From an uncultured Chloroflexia bacterium (GTDB taxonomy: Bacteria > Chloroflexota > Limnocylindria > Limnocylindrales > CSP1-4), in assembly GCA_963778955.1 (NCBI GenBank), contig CAVZWI010000001.1, forward strand, positions 285,582 through 349,581: a stretch of 64,000 nucleotides of DNA, in the 5' to 3' direction. Position 1 is the stretch's first letter. Each line of letters begins with the position of its first letter. Of this stretch, positions 1 through 36,061 are shown in pieces. A model generated the notes under the pieces. It was not told where the DNA came from. It did not search any database and was given only the letters and a program-made list of their open reading frames with translations. A program made the translations under genes and the position numbers.

Positions 1-506
1 CGATCATGAACAACCTAGCCATCACGGAGTGGCCGCGACTGGGCCCAGGGCCGCTCGTCATGCCCCATCGCGAGCGTGGTTTGGCGACCTCGCTCGTGGA
101 GGAGCTCAGCATCGTCGCCCGGAGCGTGCGCCAGCCAGCCTTCACCTTGAGCGGCGGCAATCAGCAGCGCGTCGCCATCGGCAAGTGGTTGGCCCGCGAC
201 CGGCTTGTCTATGTCCTCGACGAACCGACGCGCGGCGTGGACGTCTCGGCACGCTACGCGCTCTACGAGCTGATGGAGGCCATCGCCGACCGTGGCGGCG
301 CGGTCCTCATGATCTCCTCAGACCTGCCCGAGATCATCAGCATGAGCGATCGGATCTACGTGATGCGCGTGGGGGCGATCTCAGCGGAGGTGGCGCGCGA
401 GGATGCCACGGAGCAGGCGCTCCTGACCTCGATGCTGCCCGACGCGAACGTGGGCGACGCCGACGATCCTGCCGGGGCCGGTGGTTCTGCCGGGGCCGGC
501 GCTTGA
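1..506 (+). CDS. Sugar ABC transporter ATP-binding protein, C-terminal fragment. The gene starts upstream of the window.
   Basis: The ORF contains the ABC signature LSGGNQQRVAIGKWL and a Walker B motif (VLDEPTRGVD). The reading frame is open to the window edge. Confidence 0.75.
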   Translation, partial: IMNNLAITEWPRLGPGPLVMPHRERGLATSLVEELSIVARSVRQPAFTLSGGNQQRVAIGKWLARDRLVYVLDEPTRGVDVSARYALYELMEAIADRGGAVLMISSDLPEIISMSDRIYVMRVGAISAEVAREDATEQALLTSMLPDANVGDADDPAGAGGSAGAGA

Positions 507-534
507 GCGGGCCACACTCCCCCGGTTCGACCCG

Positions 535-1290
535 ATGAGCCGGGGCGTCGTCTTCGACATCCGCGAGTTCACGGTGCATGACGGGCCGGGCATGCGCACC
601 ACCGTCTTCATGAAAGGCTGCCCGCTGGCTTGCACCTGGTGCCACAACCCGGAAGGCCTGTCCATCGAGCCGCAAGTCATGCGCTCCGCGGGGGGCGAGC
701 GGATGGTGGGCCGCGAGTACGAGGCGGTCGAGCTGGCGGGGGTCCTGGTGGGGCAGGCGGACATCCTCGTCTCCGGCGGTGGTGGCGTGACCTTCTCCGG
801 TGGTGAGCCGCTGTTGCAGGCTGACTTCGTGGCCGAAGTCATCGACCTCTTGGGCGGCATGCACGTGGTGCTCGATACGTCGGGCTACGCTCCGGCCGCT
901 GTGTTCTCGCAGGTGGCGGGCCGAGCCGACCTGCTTTACTTCGACATCAAGTTCATCGACCCCGATGCGCACAGGCAGTGGACAGGCCAGGACAATCGAC
1001 CGATCCTGGCGAACCTGGACTTGTTGGCCCGATTGGCGAAGCCCTTCGTGGCACGGGTGCCGCTGGTCCCCGGTGTCACCGATACGACCGAGAACCTGAC
1101 CGCCATCGCCAAGCGCCTGGCACCACGGCCGACGCTCCGGTACGTCGAGCTGCTGCCATACAATCGAGCCGCTGGTGGCAAGTACGAAGCGTGCGGCATG
1201 ACGTTCCTGCCTGGCTTCGACGAGGCCCAGGAACCGAACGCCGATACGGGGCCGTTCGAGCAGATGGGGATCGAGGTGCGAGTCGCATGA
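535..1290 (+). CDS. Glycyl-radical enzyme activating enzyme (radical SAM)
   Basis: The N-terminus reads FDIREFTVHDGPGMRTTVFMKGCPLACTWCHNPE, a CX3CX2C cluster typical of PFL-activase-like proteins. The stop overlaps the start of the downstream glycyl-radical enzyme (ATGA). An alternative start exists at 481. Confidence 0.8.
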   Translation: MSRGVVFDIREFTVHDGPGMRTTVFMKGCPLACTWCHNPEGLSIEPQVMRSAGGERMVGREYEAVELAGVLVGQADILVSGGGGVTFSGGEPLLQADFVAEVIDLLGGMHVVLDTSGYAPAAVFSQVAGRADLLYFDIKFIDPDAHRQWTGQDNRPILANLDLLARLAKPFVARVPLVPGVTDTTENLTAIAKRLAPRPTLRYVELLPYNRAAGGKYEACGMTFLPGFDEAQEPNADTGPFEQMGIEVRVA

Positions 1291-3386
1291 ACCAGAAGCT
1301 GACGAGACTTCGAGCCCGCACGCGCGAGGGCCACTTCCGGCAGTACCGCCAGACGGTGGTGCCCGACCTCATCGCCGAGTGCGAGCGCGACGACTTGGCG
1401 TGGCCGGCACGGATGGCGCGCCTGACGCGTCGCATGTGCGAGGCCGAGCAGGTCGTCATCGAGCCCGACGAGCGCATCGTCTTCACCCGCACCCTGCCGA
1501 GCGTGCCGCCGGTGTATGCGCCGGCCGACCTGGCTGCCATGACCGAGGGCCGAACCCTGCACGAGGGCGGCATCGTGAACAACGTCTGTGCCGATTGGGG
1601 CATGTCGCTCGGGGCCGGCCTGCTGGGCCGGCGCGAGGTGGCGCTCCAGACACGTGCCCGGCTGGCAGCTGCCGACGATACGGATGGCGTCGAGTTCATC
1701 GATGCGTCCCTCGAGGCCATCGATGCCGTGCTGGCGCTGGCCGACCGCTACGCGACAGAAGCGCGCCAACACGGCATGGACGATGTGGCCGACCGGCTCG
1801 AGCGAGTCCCCGGCGGGGCTCCGACGTCCTTCCATGATGCCCTCCAGTCGATGCGATTCATGCACGCGGTGGTGTGGCTCTCCGGTCATCACCATGTCGG
1901 CCTGGGCCGACTGGACCAGTACCTGTGGCCGTACCTGGCCGCGGATCTTGACAGCGGCCGGCTCGACGAGGCCGGTGCGGAAGACCTGTTGGCCGAGTTC
2001 TTCATCGCGCTCAATCGCGACTCCGACCTCTACCCTGGCATCCAGCAAGGTGACAACGGCCAGTCGCTGACCCTCGGCGGGGTGACGCCCAGCGGTGAGT
2101 CCGCGGTCAACCCGCTCACCACCATGGCCCTGCGGGCGGCCCGCGACGTCGGCCTCATCGACCCCAAGATCAACCTGCGCATCACGGCCGAGACGGACCA
2201 GGGCTTGCTGGAGCTGGCGACCGAACTGACTCGCAAGGGATTGGGTTTCCCGCAATACGCGAATGACGACGTGGTGATCCCGGCGCTGGCCGCCCACGGC
2301 TATGAGATCGCCGACGCACGTGACTACACCGTCGCGGCTTGCTGGGAGTTCATCATCCCCGGACGTGGCATGGATGTGGGCAACATCGGCGCCGTCTCCT
2401 TCCCCGCTGCAGCGGATGCCGCCATCCGTGAGGTCCTGGCCGGCGGTGGGTCTTTCGGGGCCATCCTCGATGGCACCGCGGTCCAGGTCGCGGCACAGGT
2501 CCGAGCCCGAACCGAGCCCTACGAGCGACTGCTGTGGGCGCCCGCCCCGTACTACTCGGCACTGATGACCGATGCCCTGGAGAACGGGGTCGACCACGGT
2601 CAGGGCGCCAAGTACCGCAACCTCGGCATCCACGGAGCGGCGGCGGCGAGTGCGGCCGATGCCCTCGCGGCGGTGAAGCGTCACGTCTTCGATGCCGCCG
2701 ATGTGGATGCCTCCGAGTTGGTGGCCGCGCTGGACGCGGACTACGTCGGCTATGAAGACCTGCGGCGCACGATGGCCGAGGAGAGCCCACGCGTCGGGCT
2801 GGCCGAGCCGGAAGCTGACCAACTCCTGGGGCAGCTGTACGACTGGCTGGCCGATGCCTGCGATGCCGAGACGGAGCGTTCGGGGCTGCTGGTGCGGCCT
2901 GGGACCGGCACTGCCATGTATTACCTGTGGCTGGCTCGCGGGCGCGAAGACGGCCCGATGGCTGAACCGGTGGTCGGCGCCACCGCCGACGGGCGCCGCC
3001 GCGGAGATCCCTTCGGTGCCAACCTGGCTCCGACGCCAGGGACACGACTGCGCGGCCCCATCAGCGTCCTGCAGTCCTACTCGAAGATCGACTACGGCCG
3101 CGTCTGCAACGGCGGGCCCATCACGCTGGAGCTGTCCGACTCGGTCTTCCGCAGTAGCGGCTCGATCAGCAAGGTGGCGCAGCTGGTGCGCACGTTCGCG
3201 AGGGTCGGTGGTCAGCAATTGCAGCTCAACGCGCTCAATGCATCCACGCTGCTCGACGCCAAGGCCCACCCGGAGGCGCACCGAGACCTCATCGTGCGTG
3301 TTTGGGGTTGGAGCGGCTACTTCTGCGAGCTCTCGCCCGAGTACCAGGACCACGTCATCGCCCGCCACCTCTACGCCGAGGTATAG
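1288..3386 (+). CDS. Glycyl radical enzyme (PFL2/glycerol-dehydratase-like family), compact at about 699 aa, substrate unknown
   Basis: The C-terminus carries a glycyl-radical motif (IVRVWGWSGYFCELS). A candidate active-site Cys-x-Glu loop reads AACWEFIIPG. The N-terminal GRE core is conserved (FHDALQSMRFMHAVVWLSG...GRLDQYLWPY). The gene is translationally coupled to the activase. Confidence 0.8.
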
Positions 3387-15536: not shown

Positions 15537-16445
15537 ATGAACAGCCACGACCTCGCAACCGCCGGCCGACCGACCTTTGGCATCTGTGTCCCCAACTTCC
15601 GTGCCGGCACTGGCCCGGAGGCCATCCTCGCCGCCGCCGGAACGGCCGAGCAGCTGGGTTGGTCGGCAGCCTGGACGACCGATCACCTGCTCGTCGACGA
15701 CGCCCAGCGTGGTGCCGACTATCGACACATCTACGAGGCGATCAGCGTCCTCGCCTGGCTGGCCGGCCAGACCCAGCGCATCTCGCTGGGCAGCAGCGTG
15801 CTGGTCGTGCCCATGCGCAGCGCCGTGGCGCTGGCCAAGGAGCTGGCGACCATCGATGCGCTCAGCCACGGACGGCTCATCGCCGGAGTGGGCATAGGCT
15901 GGAACCGCACCGAGTTCGAGAACGTCGGCGTCGGCGAGCGGTTCGCGGTGCGCGGGGCGTATCTGGAGGAGACCGTGGCCCTGTGGCGCTATCTGTGGGG
16001 CGGCGGCAGCGGGCCATACCGGGGACGTTTCGACAGCTTCGGCAAGAGCTACTTCTCTCCCTTGCCCCCGCAGGGCGCGGAGCTGCCGGTCTGGATCGGC
16101 GCCACTGCCGAGCCGGCCCTGCGCCGCGTCGGACGGATCGCCCAGGGCTACCAGGCGACCCAGACCGATCCCGCGACGATGCGTGAGCGGGCGCGCATCA
16201 TCGCCGCCGCCGCCTCCGAGGCCAGTCGCGCCACGCCCACCCTCTCGGTCCGCTGCAGCGTCATCTTCGACAAGGTCGTCGATGGGCCGGTGCTGTCCGG
16301 CTCGACCGATCGGATCCGTTCCCAGGTGCGCGCCTACCATGAAGCTGGAGTCGAACACCTGGCGCTCGACTTCAGGGAGGTCGAACCGACGGCCGTAGCG
16401 CGCGCCATCAAGCGGTTCGACGATGAGATCGTGGCGAGCCTGTAG
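15537..16445 (+). CDS. LLM-class F420-dependent oxidoreductase (luciferase-like)
   Basis: The ORF belongs to the luciferase-like monooxygenase family (TDHLL...LGSSVLVVPMR...GRLIAGVGIGW). Confidence 0.8.
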   Translation: MNSHDLATAGRPTFGICVPNFRAGTGPEAILAAAGTAEQLGWSAAWTTDHLLVDDAQRGADYRHIYEAISVLAWLAGQTQRISLGSSVLVVPMRSAVALAKELATIDALSHGRLIAGVGIGWNRTEFENVGVGERFAVRGAYLEETVALWRYLWGGGSGPYRGRFDSFGKSYFSPLPPQGAELPVWIGATAEPALRRVGRIAQGYQATQTDPATMRERARIIAAAASEASRATPTLSVRCSVIFDKVVDGPVLSGSTDRIRSQVRAYHEAGVEHLALDFREVEPTAVARAIKRFDDEIVASL

Positions 16446-16552: not shown

Positions 16553-19025
16553 ATGCGATACGGACGGTTCGATGACGAACGGCGCGAGTACGTCATCACG
16601 CGACCGGATACGCCGCTGCCCTGGATCAACTACCTGGGGACCGAGGACTACCTGGGCCTCATCTCCAACACCGCCGGCGGTTACTCGTTCTATCGCGATG
16701 CCCGCCTGCGCCGCCTGACGCGCTACCGCTACAACAACGCGCCCCTCGATGTCGGCGGCCGCTACCTGTACCTGCGTGACGACCTCACCGGCGACTACTG
16801 GAGTCCCAGCTGGCAGCCGGTCGGCGGGTTCGTCGAGGACTACGAGTGCCGCCACGGGCTGGGCTACACGGTCATCGGCTCGCGCAGCAACGGCATCCGC
16901 ACCGAGACGACGTACTTCGTGCCGCTGGGCGAGACGCTGGAGGTTTGGCGCACCCGCATCACCAACGAACGCGATACACCCGCGCGGTTGTCGCTCTTCA
17001 GCGCGGTCGAATGGAACCTCTGGGACGCCCTGGACGATGCCACCAACTTCCAGCGCAACTACTCGGTCGGCGAGGTGGAGGTCGAAGACGACGTCATCTA
17101 CCACAAGTCCGAGTACCGCGAACGCCGCGACCACTTCGCCTGGTTCGCATGTTCGGAGCCGTTGGCCGGGTTCGACACCCAGCGCGATGCCTTCCTGGGA
17201 CCCTACCGCGGCTGGGACCGACCGACCGTCGTGGAACAGGGCACGGCGACGGACTCGATGGCCCATGGCTGGCAGCCCATCGGCTGCCATCACGTGCGCC
17301 TGGAGCTGGCACCAGATGAGACGTACGAGGTCATCTTCGCCATGGGCTACGCGGAGAACCCCGCCGACGCCAAGTTCGACCCACCCGGTTCGCAGACGAT
17401 CGCCAAGCGCGGCGTGCGGCCGACCATCGAGCGCTACCTCCGCGCCGATCAGGTCGAACAGGCACTGGCGGCCCTGAGCGATCATTGGGATGAGTTGCTG
17501 GGCGCACTGCACGTGGCCACGCCCAACGAGCACCTCGACCGCATGGTCAACACCTGGAACGCCTACCAGTGCATGGTCACGTTCAACCTCTCGCGCTCGG
17601 CATCGATGTTCGAGTCGGGCATCGGCCGGGGCATGGGCTTCCGCGATTCCAACCAGGACCTGCTCGGGCTTCGTGCACATGGTTCCTGCGCGCGCCCGGC
17701 AGCGCATCCTCGACATCAGCGCCACGCAGCTGCCGAGCGGCGGCGCCTATCACCAGTACCAGCCGCTGACCAAACGCGGCAACGACGCGGTCGGCTCCGG
17801 CTTCAACGACGACCCGGCCTGGCTGGTGCTGGCTGTGGCGGCCTACATCCGCGAGACCGGCGACTGGTCCATCCTCGACGAGCCGGTCCCCTACGACAAC
17901 GTCGCGGGCTCGGAGACGCCGCTGTACGAGCACCTGCTTCGGGCGGTCGAGTACACGCTGGAGCGGCTCGGACCACACGGGCTGCCGCTCATCGGCCGCG
18001 CCGACTGGAACGACTGCCTCAACCTCAACTGCTTCAGCCAGACCCCTGGCGAGTCGTTCCAGACCACGGAGAACAAGGCAGGCGGCGTGGCCGAATCGGT
18101 CTTCATCGGCGCCCTCTTCACGCTGGCAGCACAGGAGATGGGGGCCCTGGCACGACGACGAGGCGACGACGCCGTGGCCGATCGTTGTGGGTCGGCCGCG
18201 TCGGAGATGGTAGCGGCCATGGATGCGCACGGCTGGGATGGTGCCTGGTTCCGTCGTGCCTACGACCACTTCGGCCATCCCGTCGGCTCGGCGCAGAACG
18301 AGGAGGGGCAGATCTTCATCGAGCCCCAGGGCATGGCCGTCATGGCCGGCATCGGCGTCGGGGATGGTCGGGCGGAGACCGCCCTCGCCTCAGTGCGCGA
18401 GCGGCTGGCTACCGACCACGGCATCGTGCTGCTGCAGCCGGCCTTCAGCCACTACTACCCCGAGTACGGCGAGATCAGCTCGTATCCCCCCGGCTACAAG
18501 GAGAACGCCGGGGTCTTCTGCCACACCAACCCCTGGCTGATGATCGCTGAAGCTCGACTCGGCAACGGCGACGGCGCGTTCGACTACTACCTGCGCATCA
18601 ATCCATCGGCCCGTGAAGACATCAGCGAGATCCACCGCTGCGAGCCATACGTGTACGCCCAGATGATCGCCGGACGGGACGCACCCACCCATGGCGAAGC
18701 CAAGAACTCCTGGCTCAGCGGCACGGCGGCCTGGAACTTCGTCGCCGCCACGCAGTGGATCCTGGGGATCCGCCCCGAGCACGATGGCCTGCGCGTCGAT
18801 CCGTGCATCCCGGCCGATTGGGCAGGGTTCAGCACCACGCGACGCTTCCGGGGCACGACGTACCGCATCCGGGTCAGCAAGCCGGTGGGGACGATCGGAC
18901 GCGTGCGTCGATTGGTCGTCGACGGTCGGGCCATCGATGGCAACATCGTCCCACTGCCGGTCCGGCGGGGTGGCACTATCGAGGTCGAAGCGATGGTCGA
19001 GAACATCGCCATGGGAGGATCGTGA
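16553..19025 (+). pseudogene. Cellobiose phosphorylase (GH94), frameshifted as sequenced
   Basis: The N-terminus MRYGRFDDERREYVITRPDTPLPWINYLG reads through to ...[17 protein letters not shown] in one frame. [38 protein letters not shown]...[27 protein letters not shown] follows in the next. The culprit is an extra g in cgg[g]ctt near 17667. Confidence 0.85.
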
Positions 19026-20755: not shown

Positions 20756-21886
20756 CTAGTCGCGGATCACCGGCTCCACCGGGTACGGTGCCAGCAGCTG
20801 GCCGCCCTCGGGTGTGACACGGTAGACATCCTCGAAACGAGCACCGCCGAAGCCGGGGATGGCCAGCACCGGATGGCCGATGGTGAACGTCATTCCCTCA
20901 CGCAGCGGCACGTTCTTGTGTGGCGGGATGATGGTCGGGGCCGGCGTCTCCTCGAACCGCAGCCCCAGGCCGTGGCCGATGCCGTAGACGTGGAACTTGC
21001 CCAAACCGTGACGTTCACAGACCGCGTGGGCGACCGAGTCGAGCTTTGCCGGCGTTGCGCCCGGGACCAGCACGCGTCGCACAGCTTCCACCACGTCGAG
21101 GTAGGCGTCGATGAGCCCCTGCTGTCGGTCGTCCGGCTGGCCGACGACGAAGGTGCGGGCGAGGTTGGCGCAGTACCCCTCCACCTGCGGCGTCAGGTCG
21201 ATGATGGCCATCTCCCCGGCCGCCAGCGGCCGGGGACTCTGGCGGCCGTGGAGCATGCAACTCTCGATGCCAAAGTTGACCCAGGGTGGGGTGCTCGTCG
21301 ATTCGGCCCCGGCGCACATCATGGTGTAGAGAGCCTCGGTCACGACCTCGTGGGCCGTGGCGCCCGGCCGAAGCAGCTCGCGAGCACGATCCATGCCCAA
21401 GCCCGCGATCCGCTGCGCCTCCGTCATGAGCCCGATCTCACCGGAGTCCTTGATCATCCGCAACGGATCCATGACCGCGTCGGACGTCACCAGCTCCATC
21501 CCCGGATTCACCTTGCGGAACATGTCGACGAGAAAGGCCGGTGTATCGAACCACTGCTGCATGCCCACCTTGGGGCGTTCTCCGTCAGGCGTATCGGTGG
21601 CGGCCGCGATCTGGTTCAGACGGGAGACGACGTCATTGATCTGGCCGCCGACCGTGGTGAAGATCTGGACCCGGCCTTCTTCGATGCCGGCCCGCAACTC
21701 CGGCTCCTCGCCGGCGAAGGCCACGATCTCGGCCGGCCCTGAGGCGGGGATGAGCGCCCGCGGCTGGGAGCGGTCTTCGCCGAACAGGTAGCGGAAGTCG
21801 TCGTGGTTCATGACTACGATGGCGATGAGCCCTTGCTCGCGCATCCCTTCCTGGACGCGGGCGATGCGGTCGTAGCGGATATCCAT
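20756..21886 (-). CDS. M24-family metallopeptidase (Xaa-Pro aminopeptidase / creatinase-like)
   Basis: A creatinase N-domain is followed by the M24 pita-bread fold with metal ligands (...HGIGHGLGLRFEE...). Confidence 0.8.
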   Translation of the reverse strand: MDIRYDRIARVQEGMREQGLIAIVVMNHDDFRYLFGEDRSQPRALIPASGPAEIVAFAGEEPELRAGIEEGRVQIFTTVGGQINDVVSRLNQIAAATDTPDGERPKVGMQQWFDTPAFLVDMFRKVNPGMELVTSDAVMDPLRMIKDSGEIGLMTEAQRIAGLGMDRARELLRPGATAHEVVTEALYTMMCAGAESTSTPPWVNFGIESCMLHGRQSPRPLAAGEMAIIDLTPQVEGYCANLARTFVVGQPDDRQQGLIDAYLDVVEAVRRVLVPGATPAKLDSVAHAVCERHGLGKFHVYGIGHGLGLRFEETPAPTIIPPHKNVPLREGMTFTIGHPVLAIPGFGGARFEDVYRVTPEGGQLLAPYPVEPVIRD

Positions 21887-27072: not shown

Positions 27073-28580
27073 CTACAGCCGATGTGAGATGGGCGCGACC
27101 GCCGGATAGACCTCACGATAGAGCTCGAAGAGCCGGGAATAGGCTGCGTGCCGCGCCGGATCGGGTTGGTAGATGTCGGTCAACTCCAGGAAGCGCTCGG
27201 CACCCTCGGCCGCGGACGGCCAGAGCCCGGCGCCCGTGCCCGCCAGCAATGCCGCGCCGAAGGCCGCGGCCTCCGTGATGCGCGGCGTGATGACTGGGAT
27301 GCCGGTGATGTCCGCCTTGAGTCGCAGCCAGAGCGGAGAGCGTGCACCCCCGCCGATGGCGCGCAAGACATCGATGGCCACACCGCCGTCACGGAGCAGG
27401 TCCAGGTTGAGCCGCAACTCGTAGGTGAGCCCCTCCAGGATGGCCTTGGCGATGTCGCCCCGAGTGGTCGAGAACGTCAACCCCAGGATGGCGCCCCGCG
27501 ACGCCGTGTCGAAGGTCGGCGTCCCGGCACCGGCGAAGTGGGGCAGGACCAGCAGACCGGTCGGTTCCGACGAGGCATCGGCGAGGATGACGTCGTATGC
27601 GTCCGCTCCGGAGGCAGACGCCCGAGACAGCTGCGGCTCGCAGAAGCCGTCGCGGAACCAGCGCAGCGCCAGGCCGCCGCTGTGATTGAGCGTCATGGCC
27701 AGGAACGACCCGGGCACGGTCGCACGGTAGACCGAGACGTTGCCCTCGTAGAGCGGCTCGGAGACGACCGGTGCGCCGAGCGCGACCTCCACCACCTCGG
27801 CGGTGCCGGTCGAGACCGAGGCCAAACCCGGGCGGGTAAGGCCGACGCCCAGCGCTCCACAAGCCTGGTCGTGACCACCGCTGACGACGCCGGGTGCCGA
27901 AGCCAGACCCAGTCGGTCGGCCAGGTCGGCCCGCATACGGCCTACCAGCGTGCCGGATGGCGCGACCTCCGCGAGCCGGTCGGGTGAAAGGTCCAGCGCG
28001 TCGAGGTATCTCCGGCGCCCAGCCGCCGGCCTCCAGGTCGTAGAGCTGGGTCCGCGAAGCCAGGCACTCACTGATGACGGCGCGGCCGGTCATGCGCGCG
28101 ATGAGGAAGTCCTCGACCAGCAGGAACCTGTGTGCCGCTGCCCAGACGTCGGGCTCGTGCTCCCTGAGCCAAAGCAGCTTGGGCAGCGTGTTGACGGTGT
28201 GGATGGGCATACCGGTGCGCTCGAACAACCGGCGCGCGCCGAAGCGGTCGCGCAGCCACGCGTTCTGCGCTTCGGTCCGGGTGTCCATGCCCAGGATGGT
28301 CGGCCGCAGCGGTCGCCCCTCGCCATCCACGGGCGTCACCGCCTCGCCGTGGACCGACAGCCCGATGGCGGCGACCTCACGCACCCCGGCCACGGCGATG
28401 GCCTCCGCCATCGACTCCATGGCCAACGCCCACACCTGCTCGATGTCCTGCTCCGCCCACGTCGGCCGCGGGAAGTCCACGGCGTACTCACGAGACGCAC
28501 TCGCGACCAGCACCCCGTCCTCGTCGAAGAGGACAGCCTTGCAGCCGGTGGTGCCGACGTCGAGCCCGATGAGGTTGGCC
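27073..28580 (-). pseudogene. FGGY-family carbohydrate kinase (xylulokinase-like), frameshifted as sequenced
   Basis: The N-terminus (GTG start) reads MANLIGLDVGTTGCKAVLFDEDG and runs to ...YDLEAGGWAPEI. The C-terminus LDALDLSPDRLAEV... lies in the next frame. An extra t near 28025 (gagg[t]atctcc; the true sequence GGATCTCC) explains the split. Confidence 0.8.
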
Positions 28581-28586
28581 ACCGAT

Positions 28587-29714
28587 CTAGGCGTAGCGCA
28601 AGGCGGCCTGGTACATGGCCTCGATGCGCTCGGGTGTGATGTCCGGTTGCAGGTTGTGGGCCGCACAGAACACGTAGCCACCACCGGCGCCCAGGGTGTC
28701 GATGCTGTACTTGACCTCGCGGTCGATCTCCTCTGGCGTGGCTGTGGGCAGCACCTGCTGCACGTCGATACCGCCACCCCAGAAGGCCAACTCGGAGCCG
28801 AACTCCCGCTTCATGACCGCGATGTCCATCTTGGCGGCACTGCGCTGGATGGGGTTGAGCGCATCGACGCCACATTCGATGAGATCGCCGATGATATCGA
28901 AGACCGAGCCGCAGGAGTGCATGAAGACCACCGCGTCGGTCCTGGAGTGGATGAAGTCGTAGAGCTGCCTCAGATACGGCTTGACGTCCTCGCGGAACAT
29001 CTCCGGCTTGATCCAGGTCCCGCGCTGCGTGCCCAGGTCATCGCCCTGCGCGACCACCTGCACATAGGGCTCCACGTGCTGCAGGAAGAGATCCCACAAT
29101 GCGATGTCGGTCTGGGTGATCTTGTCGAGGATGGCGTGGGCCATGTCGCGGTTCCAGTAGAGGTCCATGCAGAACTGCTCGTAGCCGCGCATGAAGCAGG
29201 CGCCCTCGAAGGGACCCAGGCACATGATGTCAGCCACGACCGCGTAGTCGGTCTCCTCGAACAAGCGACGCGCCTCCTCGCGGATGCCGGCCACGCGACC
29301 AGGGTCGTAGGGATCGGGCCACTGCACAGAGTCGAGATCGCTGGCCCGTTCCAGGTCGGCGAAGGGCCGCTTGACCACGTCGTAGTAGAACGACGCCTTC
29401 TCCCAGGTCAGGTCGTACTCGTCGACGAAACGGTCGCCGGGCAGCTCCCGGGTCTCGAACTCCCAGGGGCCCTTGAGGTAGACGGCGCGGGTGTCGACGT
29501 CGTAGCGATGCAACAGGTCTTCGCGCGGATACACCGTGTCCATCTGGCGATGGGAGATGCGCGGCTCGTCATCGGGCGGCAGGCCCAGGTGGACGAGGAG
29601 GTTCTGGTAGGCGATACGGGTGGCCGTGGTGACGATGGTCGAACCCAGGTCGATCGGCACACGGTCGGTCTCCTGGTGGTTCAGCGCAGCCACGACGCGC
29701 TCCCTGTGGTTCAT
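28587..29714 (-). CDS. Uroporphyrinogen decarboxylase (URO-D) family protein, MtaA/CmuA-like
   Basis: A URO-D fold is present. The gene is embedded in a sugar operon between a permease and a kinase. Confidence 0.75.
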   Translation of the reverse strand: MNHRERVVAALNHQETDRVPIDLGSTIVTTATRIAYQNLLVHLGLPPDDEPRISHRQMDTVYPREDLLHRYDVDTRAVYLKGPWEFETRELPGDRFVDEYDLTWEKASFYYDVVKRPFADLERASDLDSVQWPDPYDPGRVAGIREEARRLFEETDYAVVADIMCLGPFEGACFMRGYEQFCMDLYWNRDMAHAILDKITQTDIALWDLFLQHVEPYVQVVAQGDDLGTQRGTWIKPEMFREDVKPYLRQLYDFIHSRTDAVVFMHSCGSVFDIIGDLIECGVDALNPIQRSAAKMDIAVMKREFGSELAFWGGGIDVQQVLPTATPEEIDREVKYSIDTLGAGGGYVFCAAHNLQPDITPERIEAMYQAALRYA

Positions 29715-29780: not shown

Positions 29781-30800
29781 CTACGACGGGGCGGGCGCCG
29801 GTTTGGGCCTGGGAGGGTCGGCATCGCCCTTCTCGACGCGGATGTTGCGCCGCTCCAGGCGACCCAGGATGCGCATGCGTTGGGCGTCGATGAAGACGGC
29901 GAAGAAGATCACGGCGGCCGCGATCATGTCCTGCAGGTAGAGGTCGATCTGCAGATAGACCAGGCCGGTCGCGATCATCTGCACCAGCAGCACGCCGATG
30001 ACGGTGCCGGGGAAGACAGCCCCGACACCGCCGAAGAGGCTGGTGCCGCCGAGCACGGCCGCGGCGATGGCGCGGAACTCGACGCCCTCACCGATGCCCG
30101 CCGAGACACTGCCTTGCTGGCTGATGGCGATGACGCCGGCCAGCGAGGCACAGAAGCCGCTGATGACGTAAACCGATCCGGTCAGGCGGACGACGTTGAG
30201 GCCGGCCTTCTTGGCGGCGTCAAGATCGTTGCCCATGGCGTAGATCTGCCGGCCCATGGCGGTGTAGCGCAGGAACACCACGGCCACCGCCACGACGATG
30301 GCGAAGACCACCACCGGGAGCGGTACACCGAAGACGTCGGTAGCCGCATAGGCCATCTCCGGCGGCAGGATGAACTGCCGCAATTCGGTCACCAGCAAGC
30401 CCACCCCTCGGCCCATGGTGAGCGTGGCCAGCGTGGCCACGAATGGGACCAGCCCCACCTTGGCGATGAGGAAGGCGTTGAGGAAGCCCCACGCGGTGCC
30501 CGCCGCGATGCCGGCCAGGATGGCCACGATGTAGTTGACATCCTGCTGCAGCAACATGCCCACGACCGCCGCGGTGATGTACATCGTGGCCCCCACCGAG
30601 AGGTCGATACCGCCGGTCAGGAGGACCGCGGTCATGCCCACCGCGAGCAGGCCCACGAAGGCTGAGGACTCCACGATGTTGGAGAAGTTGTCGATCGAGA
30701 AGAAGCGCTCATCGAGCACGCTGAAGAGCACGAACACGAGCACGAACAGGATCAGCGGCATGTTCCGCAGCAGGGTCATGGTCAGTCGGTTGCTGGTCAT
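29781..30800 (-). CDS. Sugar ABC transporter permease (ribose/xylose type)
   Basis: BPD_transp_2-type polytopic permease. Confidence 0.85.
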   Translation of the reverse strand: MTSNRLTMTLLRNMPLILFVLVFVLFSVLDERFFSIDNFSNIVESSAFVGLLAVGMTAVLLTGGIDLSVGATMYITAAVVGMLLQQDVNYIVAILAGIAAGTAWGFLNAFLIAKVGLVPFVATLATLTMGRGVGLLVTELRQFILPPEMAYAATDVFGVPLPVVVFAIVVAVAVVFLRYTAMGRQIYAMGNDLDAAKKAGLNVVRLTGSVYVISGFCASLAGVIAISQQGSVSAGIGEGVEFRAIAAAVLGGTSLFGGVGAVFPGTVIGVLLVQMIATGLVYLQIDLYLQDMIAAAVIFFAVFIDAQRMRILGRLERRNIRVEKGDADPPRPKPAPAPS

Positions 30801-32308
30801 GTCGCGTGCTCCCGAAAGGCCGTGCGGATGATGGACTCCTGGTCGAATCCCGCTCGGTCGAAGGCGCCGAGCACCTCACCCTGGCCCATGACGATGATGC
30901 GATCGCACATGCCGGTGAGCTCCTCGATCTCCGAGGAGATGAAGAGGACCGCGGTGCCCCTCGCAGCGATCTGGTCGATGATCTCGTAGATCTCGTACTT
31001 GGCGCCCACGTCCACGCCGCGGGTGGGCTCGTCGATGATGAGGATCGACGGCTCGGTCATGAGCCACTTACCCAGCACGACCTTCTGCTGGTTGCCGCCG
31101 GACAGGCCCTTGACCTCGTTCTTGAACGCGTCGTTGACCTTGATGCTCAGGATGTCCACGGTTTCCTTCACAGCGGTCGCCAGGCCGCTGTTCTTGACCC
31201 GCTTGACGACACGCGAGGTGTAGTCGGGCAGCGCCGCGATAGCTAGGTTGTCGGCGACGGTGGCCTCCATCATCAAGCCTTCCTCGCGACGGTTCTCGGT
31301 CACGAAGGCCATGCCGCCCCTGATGTTGCTGGTCGGCGACAGCTTCTCGGCGACGACCCCGTCGATGAGCACCTCACCCTCATCGAAGTCCTCGAGGCCG
31401 AAGATGATCTGGGCCAGTTCCGAACGACCCGAGCCCATCAGGCCGAACACGCCCAGGATCTCGCCCCTATGGAGCTGCAGGTCGATGTGGTGGCTGATGC
31501 CGGCCTTGGAGAGGTTGCGCACCTCGAGCATGAGGTCCTTGGTCGGAGCCGCCGTCCGATCAGGGTAGAGACTCTCGATGTCGCGACCGACCATCGAGCT
31601 GATCATGCGGTCGATGGTGAACTCGTCGCGCGAGCCCTGGGCTACCAGAGCCCCGTCACGAAGCACGGCGATGGCGTCCGACAGGCGCATCACGTCACCG
31701 AGGATGTGGCTGATGTAGAGGATGGTCTTGCCGTCCTCGTGGAGCCGCCCGATGAGGTCGAAGAGGCGGTCGGTCTCACGCGCGGTGAGCGATGTCGTGG
31801 GCTCGTCGAAGATGATGATGCTCGCGTCCACCGACAGCGCCTTGGCGACTTCCACGAGCTGCCGCTCGCCGGGAGCCAAGCGCTCGACGCGCATGTCGGG
31901 CGAGACATGTAGGTCGACCATGGCCAGGTACTCTCGAGCGCGGTCGTTGAGCTCACGCCGGTTCAACAACGGAGCGCGGCCCAGGGTCGGGAAATCACTG
32001 ATGAAGAAGTTCTCGGCGATGCTCAGGTTGGTGAAGAGGTTCAGCTCCTGGTGGATGAAGGCGATGCCGGCCTCATCCGCGTGTTTCGGGTCACCCGGCT
32101 CGAAGGCTTTCCCGTTGAGCAGCATTTGGCCTGCCGTGGCCGGCACCACGCCGCCGAGGATGTTCATGAGCGTGGACTTTCCGGCACCGTTCTCGCCGAC
32201 CAGGCCCACGGTCGTGCCGCGTTCCACGTCAAGGTCGATGCCCTTGAGCACCGGCACACCGAAGAAGGACTTGTCGATGCCCTGGAACTGCAGGATCAGG
32301 TCACTCAT
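30797..32308 (-). CDS. Sugar ABC transporter ATP-binding protein (duplicated ATPase domains)
   Basis: Two sets of Walker A, signature and Walker B motifs are present (GENGAGKST...; LSGGNQQKVVLGKWL...IIDEPTRGVD). Confidence 0.9.
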   Translation of the reverse strand: MSDLILQFQGIDKSFFGVPVLKGIDLDVERGTTVGLVGENGAGKSTLMNILGGVVPATAGQMLLNGKAFEPGDPKHADEAGIAFIHQELNLFTNLSIAENFFISDFPTLGRAPLLNRRELNDRAREYLAMVDLHVSPDMRVERLAPGERQLVEVAKALSVDASIIIFDEPTTSLTARETDRLFDLIGRLHEDGKTILYISHILGDVMRLSDAIAVLRDGALVAQGSRDEFTIDRMISSMVGRDIESLYPDRTAAPTKDLMLEVRNLSKAGISHHIDLQLHRGEILGVFGLMGSGRSELAQIIFGLEDFDEGEVLIDGVVAEKLSPTSNIRGGMAFVTENRREEGLMMEATVADNLAIAALPDYTSRVVKRVKNSGLATAVKETVDILSIKVNDAFKNEVKGLSGGNQQKVVLGKWLMTEPSILIIDEPTRGVDVGAKYEIYEIIDQIAARGTAVLFISSEIEELTGMCDRIIVMGQGEVLGAFDRAGFDQESIIRTAFREHAT

Positions 32309-32317
32309 GGTCGTACC

Positions 32318-33385
32318 TCAGACCTGCTGCAGCGCCAGGCGGCGGCGGACGACATCGAGCAGAGCGGCGAAGAGGATGACCGAACCCTTGACGATGGCGA
32401 TGTAGAAGTAGGGCACGTTGAGCAATGAGAGCGCATTGCCCAGCAGGACCAGGAAGATGACGCCAAAGACCGTCCAGATGATCTTGCCGCGGCCACCGGC
32501 CAGGCTGGTGCCGCCGATGACCACCGCCGCGATGATGTCGAGCAGGAGCGGCTCGCCCAGCGTGGGGCGGCCCTGCTGGACCCGCGACGTATAGATGATC
32601 GACGCGGCCGCGGCACAGACGCTGCTGAAGATGTAGGTAGCGACGATGACCTTCTTCACAGGCACGCCAGAGACCACGGCGGCACGGGGATTGTTGCCGA
32701 TGCCGTATAGCCAGCGCCCGAAGATGCTGCGACCCAGGATGAGGTGGGCCACGACGGCCACGCCGATGGCGATGACCATGGCGATGGAGAAGATGCCGAA
32801 GTCGTCGCCGATGAGGGCGAAAGCGTCAGGCAGATCGATGATGTTCTCGCTCTTGACCACGTAGATGGCCAAGGCAGCCACGAACATCGAGGTCACCAGG
32901 GTGACCATGAAGGGCGGGATGCGCGCGAATGCGACGGCCACGCCGTTGAAGGCACCGATGACAAGGCCGACGGCCAGCATGGCGACGATGGCCACCGGGA
33001 TACCCAGGACCGAGTCATGGAGGATGGCACCGTCCTGGAACAGGAAGATGTCCCACAAGGGGCTCTTGCGGAAGACGATGGGATTGGCCGACTGGGCGAT
33101 GAACGCCGCTCCGACCACGCTGGCGAGCGAGACGACTGCGCCCTGGCTGAGGTCGATGCCGGCGATGATGAGCACGAACGTCTGCCCGATGGCGATCACC
33201 AGCAGCGGCCACATGTTCGAGAGCAGGTTGGTGATGTTGTACGGCGTCGCCACCGTGGGCGACACGAGATAGAGCCCTGCGAACATGGCGATGCACAGGT
33301 ACAGGATCAGATACTCGGACATCAGGATGCGCTTGCCGAAGCTGAGCACGCGATCGGTCGCCGAAGGCTGCACGAGGGCCGTCAT
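32318..33385 (-). CDS. Sugar ABC transporter permease (second permease)
   Basis: BPD_transp_2-type permease. Confidence 0.85.
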   Translation of the reverse strand: MTALVQPSATDRVLSFGKRILMSEYLILYLCIAMFAGLYLVSPTVATPYNITNLLSNMWPLLVIAIGQTFVLIIAGIDLSQGAVVSLASVVGAAFIAQSANPIVFRKSPLWDIFLFQDGAILHDSVLGIPVAIVAMLAVGLVIGAFNGVAVAFARIPPFMVTLVTSMFVAALAIYVVKSENIIDLPDAFALIGDDFGIFSIAMVIAIGVAVVAHLILGRSIFGRWLYGIGNNPRAAVVSGVPVKKVIVATYIFSSVCAAAASIIYTSRVQQGRPTLGEPLLLDIIAAVVIGGTSLAGGRGKIIWTVFGVIFLVLLGNALSLLNVPYFYIAIVKGSVILFAALLDVVRRRLALQQV

Positions 33386-33521
33386 CTGGCTCGCTGCCTA
33401 TGTTGTGTCGGGTGCGGCAGGGTCATCACTTCTCGCCTGGATGGGGTAGATGCGCGGGCCCCGACGTGCGAGGCCCGCGTTACCTGGGGGCGGATCAGCT
33501 CCGCCCCCGTTCAGGTACTGC

Positions 33522-34586
33522 CTATGGGTTGTAGGACGGGTCGGCCAGCAGGATGCAGCCCCACATGTCCATCTCACGCTCAGCAAGGTTGCCGGCGGTG
33601 AGAGCGAACCCGGGGTCGTCGATCCACTGGTCGGGGTGGGTGTCGCCTTTGGCGACGGCGGCGAGCAGCGCATCCAGCATCGCCTGAGCCTCGTAGTAGA
33701 GGTTCTGGACGCCGGTGGCGTCGACGTAACCGTCCTTGATCTGCCGGCAGGCGTTGACGTCGCCGTCAAGACCGGCCATCAGCACGTGATTGGGATCATC
33801 ACGGGTGACCCACTTGCCGAGCGGCTCAAGGACGCCCTTGATGGTCGGGAAGAGGAAGTCGGAGGACGTGAACAGGAAGTCCACGTCGGGGTTGGCGGCC
33901 ATGGCCGCCTGCAGGTTGGCCTGCCCGGTCGCGGCGTCCCAGTTGGTGGGGACCTCGATGGGATCGGTCAACCAGAGGTCGGGGTTGGCGTTGATGACGT
34001 CGTAGAAGCCCTCATAGCGGCCGATGGCGTTGGGATCGCCCAGGTCGCCGACCATGATGAGCGGAGTCACCTTCTTGCCGGCCGCGATGGCCTGGTCGGC
34101 GATGTACTGGACGGCGTCACGCGCGATGGTGCGGTTGTCGGCCTGCACCACGATGGCGGCGCCATCCTCGCTCTGCGGCGGGCGGTTGAAGATGCCGATG
34201 GGGATGTTGGCGTTGTTGGCTTCTTCGATCAGCGTCAGGGCGATGGAGCCGTCCTTGGGGATGACGAAGATGGCGTCGACGCCCTGTGCGATGCAGTCGC
34301 GTTCCAACTGCAGCTGCCCATTGGCATCGGGGCTATAGCGCTCGAGGACGTTGTCGCCCTGCGCGGCCAGCGTCTCGGTCATGGCCTTGTGGCCGGCCAG
34401 CCAGAACTCGGTCTCGAGATCTTCGTGGATGAAGCAGATGTTCAGGCCTCCGGCCGCGGCCATGGACTCGGCCGGAGCGGCACTTTCGTCCTGTGCCAGG
34501 GCCGGGGTCGCGGACAGCGCCAACGCGCCGACCATGGTGAGCCCGATGACTCCCTTGAGATTCCGCATGAGTTTGGTCTCCTCCAA
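33522..34586 (-). CDS. Sugar ABC transporter substrate-binding protein (periplasmic binding protein type I)
   Basis: A signal peptide and a RbsB-like PBP fold are present. The start could instead be the internal Met near 34568. Confidence 0.85.
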   Translation of the reverse strand: MEETKLMRNLKGVIGLTMVGALALSATPALAQDESAAPAESMAAAGGLNICFIHEDLETEFWLAGHKAMTETLAAQGDNVLERYSPDANGQLQLERDCIAQGVDAIFVIPKDGSIALTLIEEANNANIPIGIFNRPPQSEDGAAIVVQADNRTIARDAVQYIADQAIAAGKKVTPLIMVGDLGDPNAIGRYEGFYDVINANPDLWLTDPIEVPTNWDAATGQANLQAAMAANPDVDFLFTSSDFLFPTIKGVLEPLGKWVTRDDPNHVLMAGLDGDVNACRQIKDGYVDATGVQNLYYEAQAMLDALLAAVAKGDTHPDQWIDDPGFALTAGNLAEREMDMWGCILLADPSYNP

Positions 34587-34648: not shown

Positions 34649-36061
34649 TCAGGCATGTCGGAAGACCTCCCAGTCGAGGTAGTTCTCGAGCGCTTCGGCC
34701 ACGGCGTCCGCGGTGTGCGCGGGACTCATGGCGCAGTGGTGCTCGAAGCCGACCTTGCAGATGAGCTTCAGGAGCGGCTGGAAGTTGGGGATCTCGACCA
34801 CTGCACTGGAGCCGAAGGTGTCCAGCGGGTCGTCGAGGAACTGCCCCTCAGCCACGTAGGCCTTGCACCTGCCGTTGACGTCGTCAGTGCTGATGCGGGC
34901 GATGGTCAGCGGCGCCGCCGGCGCGCGGCCAGTGATGGCACCGTAGACGTTGTCATTGCCCAGCGTAGTGCCAAGCACGTCGGCGATGCGCATCTCGGCC
35001 TCTCCCTCGGGGTAGAAGTTCAGGGGCCAGTTGCCGCAATGGAAGAGCACGCACTTGTCAGGGTGGTCGCCGTAGTTGTTGTTGAGGTCGACGATGGCCG
35101 CCGGCTGCTCGGCGGCCAGCTGCAGCGCGTACATCGAGGCCAAGCCGGTGATGTCGGTCTCACAGGCGCTGGGCATGAGCTTGTTGCTCATGATGCTCAT
35201 GAGCGTGCAGACGTTGACCCCGTAGTTCTCCTGGAGTGAGCTCCAGCACTGCATGGCGGTGGCATCAAGGTCGTTGGCGGCCATCCAGTCGTCGACCACG
35301 ACGCCCAGCTTGGCCATCTTCACCAGCTTCTCCGGCGGCACCGTCGGATGCGGCATGTGAGCCCGGATCTCGTCGAGCTTGGCCTTGGTCTTGGCGTCGT
35401 CATCGCCCAAGCGGTTGGCGTTGCCGAAGACCTCGCTGAAGTCGATGACGCTGACCGCGATGCCGGAGGCTTCGAGCAGCTTCTCGCTGTAGCGCACGGT
35501 CTTGAAGGCATCGGGTCGCGTGCCGATGGCGCCAAGTCGGGCATGCTTCATGCCGTTGGCGACCTTGCACACGCGCACGAACTTGTCGAGGTCCGCACGG
35601 AAGGCATCCGATTGCACCGGGACCGTGTGACGCTCGGTCAGCGAGTAGCTGAACCCGTATTGACGGAGGTCGCTACAGACGGAGATCTTGCCGCAGAACG
35701 AGTCGCGACGACGGTCGAGAGTGAAGGCGGTGACGTCATCCGGGTAGGCCTGGATGAGGATGGGCACATCCAGGCCGGAGAGCCGCATCGTGTCCGCGAC
35801 GCCCTTCTCGTCGCCGAAGTTGGGCAGAACCACCAGCACACCCTCGATGCGCTTGCGGTTCTCATCGAACAGCTGAGCACACAACTGTGCCTCACGCCAG
35901 GTCTCCACACCGCCGAGCTTGGTGGCGCCAGCGTCGAGGATGACGGGCTCGATGTCCATCTCCTCGAACAGCGCCAGCACGTCCGCACGTGCTTCGGTCA
36001 CCAGTGCGTCGGGGAAGAAATCGCGGTTCCCGACGATGACTCCCAATGTGGCTCGTGCCAT
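34649..36061 (-). CDS. L-fucose/L-arabinose isomerase family protein
   Basis: A FucI-like fold is present (...VLFHCGNWP...; C-terminal domain). Confidence 0.7.
   Translation of the reverse strand: MARATLGVIVGNRDFFPDALVTEARADVLALFEEMDIEPVILDAGATKLGGVETWREAQLCAQLFDENRKRIEGVLVVLPNFGDEKGVADTMRLSGLDVPILIQAYPDDVTAFTLDRRRDSFCGKISVCSDLRQYGFSYSLTERHTVPVQSDAFRADLDKFVRVCKVANGMKHARLGAIGTRPDAFKTVRYSEKLLEASGIAVSVIDFSEVFGNANRLGDDDAKTKAKLDEIRAHMPHPTVPPEKLVKMAKLGVVVDDWMAANDLDATAMQCWSSLQENYGVNVCTLMSIMSNKLMPSACETDITGLASMYALQLAAEQPAAIVDLNNNYGDHPDKCVLFHCGNWPLNFYPEGEAEMRIADVLGTTLGNDNVYGAITGRAPAAPLTIARISTDDVNGRCKAYVAEGQFLDDPLDTFGSSAVVEIPNFQPLLKLICKVGFEHHCAMSPAHTADAVAEALENYLDWEVFRHA

Follow-up and report, generated by a model that had tools for sequence, protein, structure and literature searches.

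The first 3,386 nucleotides of the window, that is, of the whole 64,000-nucleotide stretch analysed here from an uncultured Chloroflexia bacterium, encode a radical-SAM activase and a compact glycyl-radical enzyme (GRE) that lies outside every characterised GRE family. The enzyme probably works by eliminase or isomerase chemistry, and it is moderately likely that its substrate is a sugar of the arabinose family. Our favoured reading, held with slightly more confidence than doubt, is a functional two-gene module in which a CXE-type radical eliminase or isomerase acts on a free L-arabinose-type sugar.

The activase and glycyl-radical enzyme pair

The activase gene (251 aa, 535–1290, + strand) matched the Pfam domains Radical_SAM (1.4e-16) and Fer4_12 (3.5e-11), and its reading frame extends from ATG 535 to TGA 1290. 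The listed open reading frame (ORF) opens at GTG 481, and the stop codon of the preceding ABC transporter gene occupies 504–506; ATG 535, located 3' of this stop, is the likely start instead of GTG 481. The CX3CX2C motif of the radical-SAM [4Fe-4S] cluster was identified in the translation as CPLACTWC (619–642, +). The GRE gene (699 aa, CXE type, 1287–3386, +) matched the Pfam domains PFL-like (3.5e-81) and Gly_radical (6.8e-19), the latter covering residues 579–680. Read directly from the sequence, the activase stop and GRE start codons share an ATGA overlap (1287–1290, +), an arrangement of translational coupling, and the identical 4-nt overlap is present in the relatives L001 (9249–10004/10001–12100), L002, L005 and L007. 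Translation and alignments located the Cys loop ACWEF (Cys352, Trp353 and Glu354; 2337–2351, +) and the glycyl-radical motif RVWGWSGYF (residues 671–679 with the radical-storage Gly674; 3297–3323, +). C352, E354 and G674 are invariant among 26 orthologues, as they are across the two orthogroups of a 46-sequence alignment. These features confirm a genuine, intact and coupled gene pair, far beyond chance, as had been proposed in a preliminary description that named the coupling, the 699-aa length, the CX3CX2C activase and both GRE motifs.

The same description had placed the pair behind a sugar ABC transporter ATPase, and this gene was found at the window start as the 3' end of a CUT2-type monosaccharide ABC transporter ATPase (C-terminal 167 aa, 3–506, +; Pfam ABC_tran). 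Its best NCBIfam matches were AraG (2.7e-40) and GguA (1e-39), which stay under their cutoffs since the window edge truncates the gene, the final transporter gene of the operon. An exact-sequence lookup of the window GRE returned no match, and relatives at 88–90% identity stood in for it in the context work. An Rfam scan of the window gave no rRNA or tRNA matches, and promoter and terminator scans gave no useful signal in this 68% GC DNA.

The activase exceeded the cutoff of TIGR02494 (207.5 bits against 174.35), with two aligned stretches separated by about 40 skipped profile positions, and aligned to TIGR02493 (PflA) in one stretch over residues 12–225 (155 bits). Its identity to E. coli PflC is 31%, and the Cys-rich ferredoxin-like segment of PflC is deleted. 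On these alignments, the protein is predicted to be a minimal activase without the ferredoxin-like auxiliary-cluster insert.

The GRE scored far below the cutoff of every curated NCBIfam GRE model. The highest score was obtained with the PFL2/glycerol-dehydratase subfamily (TIGR01774, 280.3 bits against a cutoff of 678.2), followed by the PflD-type model NF007437 (235 against 1109), HypD (232 against 1100), HpsG (228 against 1000), CutC (221 against 1050), HpfG (196 against 1000), IAD (168 against 1100), HPAD (145 against 1150) and pyruvate formate-lyase (PFL; TIGR01255, 46.1 against 994.2). No NCBIfam enzyme model of BSS matched. The top PDB sequence matches were PflD (8id0, E 4e-61) and 8yjo, followed by 1,2-propanediol dehydratase (PD, 5i2a) and glycerol dehydratase (GDH, 1r8w) at about 1e-59, with identities of 30% to E. 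coli PflD and 29% to E. coli YbiW. An AlphaFold2 (AF2) model built on the 46-sequence, two-orthogroup alignment reached a predicted local distance difference test score (pLDDT) of 90.3 and a predicted TM-score (pTM) of 0.91. An earlier AF2 model from 26 close orthologues had a pLDDT of 72.6, a poor Cys loop and Gly domain, and an uninformative fold search (TM about 0.6), and it was the two-orthogroup alignment that raised the confidence. The later model superposes on CutC, GDH, PD, PflD, HypD and HplG with query-normalised TM-scores (TMq) of 0.82–0.87 at 20–24% identity, and Foldseek found no single nearest characterised GRE. The modelled protein thus appears to be a complete GRE fold, with the ten-stranded barrel and catalytic Cys loop of the superfamily, and about equally far from each of the characterised eliminases and isomerases. 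In NCBIfam, PDB, tree and model comparisons alike, the enzyme joined no characterised clade, and its Gly and Cys are conserved; neither of the two outcomes that the preliminary description had named as refuting its view was thus seen.

Among 1.84 billion cluster representatives, scanned exhaustively with HMMER, 1,488 were GREs at E ≤ 1e-30, and the nearest of these are compact proteins of about 640–745 aa. They carry the signatures AACWEF(I/V)IPG, (Q)QGDNGQ and RVWG[WF]S, which are not present in standard GREs; all three were found in the window GRE. At 699 aa, it is the shortest of the enzymes compared, the others being PflD (765 aa), GDH (787 aa) and YbiW (810 aa). In a neighbour-joining (NJ) tree rooted on YbiW, the midpoint root being misleading, the window enzyme falls first within its own orthogroup. 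The next level is a clade of 37 representatives (median 689 aa; CWE in 35, GDNGQ in 32), enclosed by a wider clade of 64–70 representatives with CWE in most, and PflD joins the tree at the deepest node only. Five 50%-cluster representatives of the clade (P0148, P0173, P0180, P0189 and P0193) are without the catalytic Cys and/or the radical Gly, the motifs of P0148 reading ASGGEF and SVCGWD; from their sequences, they may be inactive GRE-like proteins or fragments. A literature search found no paper that deals with the compact clade or that links a GRE to arabinose metabolism.

Three further loops distinguish the window enzyme. The orthogroup-specific active-site loop VNNVCADWG (residues 97–105; 1575–1601, +) was delimited by a phmmer alignment to 1r8w and by loop comparison, and the second specificity loop SGHHHVGLGR (residues 199–208; 1881–1910, +) by alignment to GDH and loop comparison. 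The clade-defining QQGDNGQ motif (residues 253–259; 2043–2063, +) was recognised in the same way. N99 is invariant in the 46-sequence alignment, H203 is invariant in both orthogroups, and G255, D256, N257, G258 and Q259 are invariant in the alignments. In the phmmer alignment to GDH, N99 stands opposite the general acid His164, and H202/H203 stand opposite His281/Ser282. The GDNGQ segment, together with a 5-residue deletion, takes the place of the GDH Tyr339 region, replacing the aromatic-rich strand of other GREs, while Val434 of GDH corresponds to Trp353, a hallmark of the clade, and Asp447 to Asn366. The loops read x[NS]N[VI]CADW (97–105) and SGH[HY]HVGLGR (199–208) across the window orthogroup, and xCNISP[DN]Y and xGxYHNTxGR instead in its main sister orthogroup. 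The two orthogroups therefore differ exactly at the loops aligned with His164 and His281/Ser282 of GDH, the classical substrate-contact positions. A scaffold that looks constant, combined with varying specificity loops, is the pattern expected of one chemistry acting on different but related substrates.

Gene neighbourhoods, carriers and host lineage

The genes beyond the window start, which the preliminary description had recommended for inspection, were seen in the relative L001 (88% identical). Here, a divergent LacI gene is followed by araA, a substrate-binding protein (SBP), two permeases, the ATPase, the activase and the GRE. The araA gene of L001 (2819–4322) was called as two ORFs (364 and 151 aa), reflecting either a frameshift or an assembly error.

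The species scan used one genome per GTDB species and found the window orthogroup in at least 594 species genomes; taxonomy and neighbour counts refer to the best 80 of these at least 594 loci, which are in metagenome-assembled genomes (MAGs) throughout. Neighbours were clustered and re-scored with hidden Markov models. The activase was present at 68 of the 80 loci, in 67 cases within 3 kb of the GRE. Transport and regulation were represented by the ABC ATPase (38/80), permease (34/80), SBP (32/80) and LacI (31/80). URO-D genes occurred at 30/80 loci (26 within 3 kb) and corrinoid proteins at 19/80 (18 within 3 kb). Among the sugar-related genes, araA was found at 22/80 loci, always on the same strand, followed by araD (15/80), an FGGY kinase (15/80), a zinc-dependent alcohol dehydrogenase (Zn-ADH, 14/80), GH51-like (9/80) and GH127 (7/80) glycoside hydrolases, and galK (6/80). 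At least one arabinose gene was found at 38 of the 80 loci. A gene for a transglutaminase-like protein with a signal peptide was observed on the opposite strand at 17/80 loci.

The typical operon of Anaerolineae contains LacI, SBP, ATPase, permease, three URO-D genes, a corrinoid protein, activase, GRE, araA, M24, Zn-ADH, araB and araD, with the genes from URO-D to araD on one strand. Its sugar genes are bona fide by NCBIfam scores: araA with 827 bits (cutoff 622), ribulokinase with 781 bits (cutoff 428) and L-ribulose-5-phosphate 4-epimerase with 333 bits (cutoff 251). Across the Anaerolineae loci (L005, L007, L017–L047 and others), three URO-D paralogues and a corrinoid protein are located between the sugar ABC transporter and the activase–GRE–araABD genes; the corrinoid protein is TIGR02370-like (203 bits, slightly below the 215.3 cutoff). 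These genes resemble a methyltransferase system of the corrinoid type that serves a sugar-like substrate, and to our knowledge no sugar-dedicated system of this sort has been described. A preprint on mlp methyltransferase clusters mentions neither GREs nor sugars. An M24-like gene lies between araA and Zn-ADH in several of the Anaerolineae GRE operons (6/80 loci).

Acidobacterial loci follow another order, with Zn-ADH, a short-chain dehydrogenase/reductase, GH51, aldose 1-epimerase and a major facilitator superfamily (MFS) transporter, and then GRE and activase. Variants include a GntR regulator, a metallo-beta-lactamase-fold protein, a RhaT-type symporter and GH127, and the GH51, aldose 1-epimerase and MFS or RhaT symporter genes directly adjoin the GRE. 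MFS, GH127 and GH51 genes also accompany the GRE at planctomycete loci. In one of these (L031, 13504–18743), a pair of genes encoding 468 and 123 aa is present in three tandem copies 3' of the GRE locus. Comparison of the SBPs with PDB and NCBIfam was uninformative: one is RbsB/AlsB-like (about 120 bits), and the Anaerolineae SBP is weakly rhizopine-SBP-like.

Furthermore, a metagenome scan covered 80 loci of the sister orthogroup (37–45% identity). The activase was found at 74 of them, an MFS sugar symporter at 35, aldose 1-epimerase at 23, GH51-like enzymes at 16 and GH127 at 6. A paralogue in Bacteroides fragilis (689 aa, about 37% identity to the window GRE) belongs to a 90%-identity cluster of 1,914 sequences. 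Its polysaccharide utilisation locus (PUL; L170/L171, 1–22070) encodes SusD and SusC, followed by a hybrid two-component regulator, the activase, the GRE, a Sugar_tr MFS symporter, aldose 1-epimerase, GH127 and an ABM-domain protein, with GH27 nearby.

The carriers of the window orthogroup are mostly Chloroflexota (50/80 loci; Limnocylindrales, Anaerolineae, Caldilineae and Thermoflexales), followed by Planctomycetota (10/80), Acidobacteriota (9/80), Kiritimatiellota, Lentisphaerota and Verrucomicrobiota together (6/80), Spirochaetota (1/80), Armatimonadota (1/80) and unclassified genomes (3/80). No Actinobacteria were found among these best 80 loci. Over more than 15 kb, the window aligns collinearly, at 81–87% nucleotide identity, with two MAGs titled 'Candidatus Limnocylindrales' and 'Chloroflexia', and the downstream order is equal in both (DUF1775, DUF2254, hydrolase, MgtE, AstE/AspA and RimK). 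The host is a Chloroflexota bacterium and not an actinobacterium. The preliminary description had taken the genome for actinobacterial-like, with an oxygen-labile GRE as an oddity in it; this view fails because of the collinearity, and the GRE is not unusual for its lineage, given an orthogroup in at least 594 species genomes whose best 80 are mostly Chloroflexota. E. coli, a facultative organism, carries several GREs. The labels 'F420' and 'mycothiol' in that description likely stem from two genes of the window, a TIGR03619 F420-dependent LLM-class oxidoreductase (15537–16445, +; 188 bits, cutoff 166.9) and a TIGR03083 DinB/MDMPI_N-domain protein (55328–56044, +; 61.9 bits, cutoff 50). These family names are no proof of cofactor use or actinobacterial origin. 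Chloroflexota are among the bacteria with F420, and proteins of the DinB/MDMPI fold, whose thiol specificity is putative, have a wide distribution.

Substrate, reaction and alternative readings

A review of June 2026 counts a few dozen characterised GREs and describes whole clades without experimental validation (PMC13450708). The compact clade is one of these. According to the review, the 1,2-eliminases GD, PD, HpfG, HypD, HpyG, HpzG, CutC, IslA, IseG and HpsG all keep the CXE loop, and so do the isomerases HplG, YbiW and PflD; the Cys abstracts a hydrogen, and the Glu hydrogen-bonds or deprotonates a substrate hydroxyl (PMC13450708). The preliminary description had likewise considered the Cys plus Glu loop typical of eliminases rather than of PFL, in agreement with this hallmark. 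None of these eliminases and isomerases has an arabinose context.

In the mechanism that we propose, the CUT2 ABC transporter encoded upstream would bring in a monosaccharide of the L-arabinose family, free and unphosphorylated, or a compound very closely derived from one. In the absence of oxygen, this substrate would then be processed alongside the reaction of araA. The minimal activase would install the radical on Gly674, and the Cys352 thiyl radical would take a hydrogen from a hydroxyl-bearing (carbinol) carbon. Glu354 would deprotonate that hydroxyl to form a ketyl, the vicinal C–O bond (hydroxyl, ring or ether oxygen) would be eliminated, and return of the hydrogen atom would yield a deoxy-carbonyl product.

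The neighbourhoods point to a free, reducing sugar of arabinose type (galacto-configured), since arabinofuranosidases (GH51, GH127), mutarotases and neutral-sugar transporters adjoin the GRE, with no kinase or phosphotransferase system (PTS) acting between uptake and the GRE. The sister orthogroup and the B. fragilis PUL, where a mutarotase and a neutral-sugar symporter occur without a kinase, likewise suggest a free reducing sugar, and the mutarotases suggest that the anomeric state matters. A pentopyranose would offer two sites. Its CH(OH)-CH2-O(ring) motif equals that opened by PflD and YbiW in 1,5-anhydrohexitols, and its lactol carbon beside C2-OH would be a formal diol-dehydratase substrate. 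Two options follow these lines: abstraction of C1-H and departure of the 2-OH, which would yield a 2-deoxy-pentonolactone, or a ring opening as in PflD, through a C4 radical and C5–O5 scission, to a 5-deoxy-4-ketopentose. Either product would be chemically reasonable, as we infer it, and we would call any single proposal for the exact reaction unlikely at best. It is possible, though doubtful, that the CWE/GDNGQ clade comprises the first GREs to act directly on common unphosphorylated aldoses, with the window orthogroup acting on one anomer of L-arabinose.

Four other reactions were set aside. A galacturonate decarboxylase giving arabinose does not fit the neutral-sugar type of the symporters, and a radical C4-epimerase would want for a second catalytic Cys, since none is conserved throughout the clade and C101 varies between Cys, Ser and Thr. 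The M24 peptidase and GH127 were the sole hints of a Hyp-arabinoside lyase, as were weak SBP and IolM-like matches for an inositol/pinitol pathway.

Several points weigh against the favoured reading of an enzyme for free L-arabinose-type sugars. Where araBAD lies beside the GRE, L-arabinose is already handled and a radical enzyme would seem redundant; the radical step could possibly belong to an alternative or reductive branch comparable to the dha system for glycerol, or serve a modified arabinose. The frequent URO-D and corrinoid methyltransferase neighbours likewise hint that the sugar is not plain arabinose but a modified one, perhaps methylated. The window's own lineage has araA beside the GRE but neither araB nor araD. 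About 30 of the 80 loci have no informative neighbours, being stand-alone activase–GRE pairs or on short contigs, with neighbours that are unrelated genes (such as MutS, a CMAS methyltransferase, NACHT, xanthine-dehydrogenase-like), and the neighbour counts are phylogenetically non-independent, with Chloroflexota contributing 50 of 80. In addition, the substrate-contact assignments derive from sequence alignment to GDH and not from a docked or solved complex, and no biochemical work on any clade member was found in the literature.

The alternative that survives best, although we judge it improbable, is a radical ether or glycoside lyase that frees L-arabinose from a modified arabinose (O-alkyl-, ether-linked or a small arabinoside) closed to hydrolases. 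It would abstract hydrogen from the position adjoining the ether carbon and release the oxygen of the sugar or of the substituent; the URO-D and corrinoid proteins would demethylate the same substrate class, and araA, araB and araD would consume the freed L-arabinose. Such a role would suit the Anaerolineae order, with the GRE upstream of a complete and bona fide araBAD set, as well as the close URO-D and corrinoid genes (within 3 kb at 26/80 and 18/80 loci, respectively), and release of a single anomer would also call for a mutarotase. A precedent is given by HpsG, IslA and CutC, which expel sulfite or trimethylamine beside a carbinol radical (PMC13450708). However, the GRE occurs without URO-D and corrinoid genes in the window lineage and in acidobacterial, planctomycete and B. 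fragilis loci, so methyl removal is not obligatory. Furthermore, no candidate natural substrate was identified, plain monosaccharides are the usual cargo of CUT2 and Sugar_tr transporters, and GH51 and GH127 already release free arabinose. Both the seeming redundancy of a radical step beside araBAD and the recurrent URO-D and corrinoid genes keep the lyase under consideration.

Less probable again, and in our view distinctly unlikely, is a PflD/YbiW-like isomerase whose substrate, a 1,5-anhydro-alditol without phosphate or some other cyclic-ether sugar, would be imported by ABC or MFS transporters rather than a PTS and opened to a 1-deoxy-ketose. The best PDB sequence matches are indeed PflD (8id0, with 1,5-anhydromannitol-6-phosphate bound) and YbiW, no PTS genes are found nearby, and GFO_IDH_MocA oxidoreductases and AP_endonuc_2 isomerases occur at some loci (L002, L063). 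Among the members of these two families are 1,5-anhydrofructose reductase and other enzymes for anhydro-sugars. Against this, the identity to PflD and YbiW is only 29–30%, NF007437 gives 235 bits where 1109 are called for, and PflD is attached at the deepest node of the YbiW-rooted tree. Arabinose genes dominate the neighbourhoods, and no partner of the fructose-6-phosphate aldolase type was seen (E. coli has fsaA). We also know of no natural source of anhydro-pentitols.

A conventional B12-independent diol or glycerol dehydratase, working on a small product of pentose fermentation such as ethylene glycol, 1,2-propanediol or glycerol, is very unlikely. GDH and PD are among the top PDB matches (about 1e-59), the CXE motif is present, and Zn-ADH genes were found at 14/80 loci; by alignment, however, the GDH substrate residues (His164, His281/Ser282, the Tyr339 region, Val434 and Asp447) appear to be replaced, and TIGR01774 remains at 280.3 bits against its cutoff of 678.2. 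No microcompartment shell, aldehyde dehydrogenase or 1,3-propanediol dehydrogenase genes adjoin the pair in the annotated loci, and the many invariant polar residues fit a polyhydroxylated ligand. The preliminary description had suggested carbohydrate or diol processing. The link to carbohydrates is supported by the neighbourhoods, and the diol option is disfavoured because the substrate residues of the diol and glycerol dehydratases are replaced. A pyruvate or 2-ketoacid formate-lyase, as suggested by the homologue annotations 'pyruvate formate-lyase' and 'formate C-acetyltransferase', is effectively refuted by the A-C-W-E loop without an adjacent Cys-Cys pair, the TIGR01255 score (46.1 bits, cutoff 994.2) and matches to PFL structures over the C-terminal Gly-radical domain only (E 1e-14).

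The compact clade is very widespread, uncharacterised and structurally distinct, with a minimal activase and a catalytic-loop signature of its own. In anoxic soils, peat, sediments and the human gut, it appears to be linked to the degradation of arabinans, arabinogalactan proteins and extensins from plants. Its reaction, once worked out, would extend the anaerobic catabolism of plant sugars by a new radical step and could also explain the sugar-linked URO-D/corrinoid methyltransferase clusters of Anaerolineae. If direct action on aldoses proved true, it would add to pentose catabolism an anaerobic branch not known before, widespread in Chloroflexota, Acidobacteriota and Planctomycetota of soil, peat and sediment and, through the paralogue, in PULs of human gut Bacteroides. 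For tests of function, the paralogue of B. fragilis is a genetically tractable system. We therefore regard the pair as a lead for enzyme discovery rather than an anomaly.

Other loci of the window and comparison with known systems

A second large sugar/polyol catabolic island was observed on the minus strand at 23539–45347. Its order starts with a mannitol-dehydrogenase-like gene, an alcohol dehydrogenase, a PfkB kinase and FGGY_C-only ORFs (27073–28071 and 42362–43300). A URO-D/MtaA-like protein (28587–29714) directly adjoins a CUT2 ABC transporter (29781–34586), beside a protein with an L-fucose-isomerase C-terminal domain (34649–36046) that is weakly sulfoquinovose-isomerase-like. Two DRL-type oxidoreductases, a Zn-ADH, a SorC-type regulator and an MFS transporter are also encoded. 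The URO-D homologue of the island lies beside a sugar transporter and has no corrinoid partner, an arrangement reminiscent of the URO-D genes that accompany the GRE family. Elsewhere in the window, a GH94 catalytic-domain ORF of the cellobiose/chitobiose phosphorylase type (17673–19025, +) aligns from profile position 64, with long overlapping ORFs upstream (16553–18550), and may have a mis-called start or a frameshift. An M24 gene resembling Xaa-Pro dipeptidase and creatinase (20756–21886, −) was also found; the M24-like gene of the Anaerolineae operons is more distant.

Among known activases, the window protein resembles the PflA type in its length of about 250 aa, its single CX3CX2C cluster and the lack of a ferredoxin-like domain. 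It differs from that type in scoring with the TIGR02494 (PflC/PflE-type) eliminase activases, and from these in turn by the apparent loss of the auxiliary-cluster insert.

Among known GREs, PflD and YbiW (8ID0, 8YJO, 8ID7), the 'isomerases' of anhydroglycolysis, provide the best matches among solved structures. They share with the window enzyme the CXE loop, the GATxDGR and RVxG motifs, an adjacent activase gene, the fold (TMq 0.83–0.86) and, as predicted for the window enzyme, a carbohydrate substrate. The window enzyme is 66–111 residues shorter, its Cys loop reads ACWEF where theirs reads GCVE or GCIE, and QQGDNGQ replaces their FAGxPxGY. Its context consists of an ABC transporter and araA, without PTS, sugar-phosphate genes or an aldolase (fsaA) partner.

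GDH (1R8W) and PD (5I2A) likewise share the GRE fold (TMq 0.83–0.84), the CXE loop, an E value of about 1e-59 and the two-gene organisation of enzyme and activase. Every substrate-contact position identified by alignment, however, is predicted to differ in the window GRE, which is compact and has sugar transporters and araA as neighbours in place of a microcompartment or 1,3-propanediol dehydrogenase context.

CutC, HypD, IslA, IseG and HpsG have the fold in common with the window enzyme, CutC with the highest TMq (0.87), as well as the logic of radical 1,2-elimination with a Glu base. The equivalog scores for CutC, HypD and HpsG are 221–232 bits against cutoffs of 1000–1100, the aligned N99 and H202/H203 loops hold no counterpart of Asp216 of CutC, and the genomic context of all five enzymes is other than that of the window GRE.

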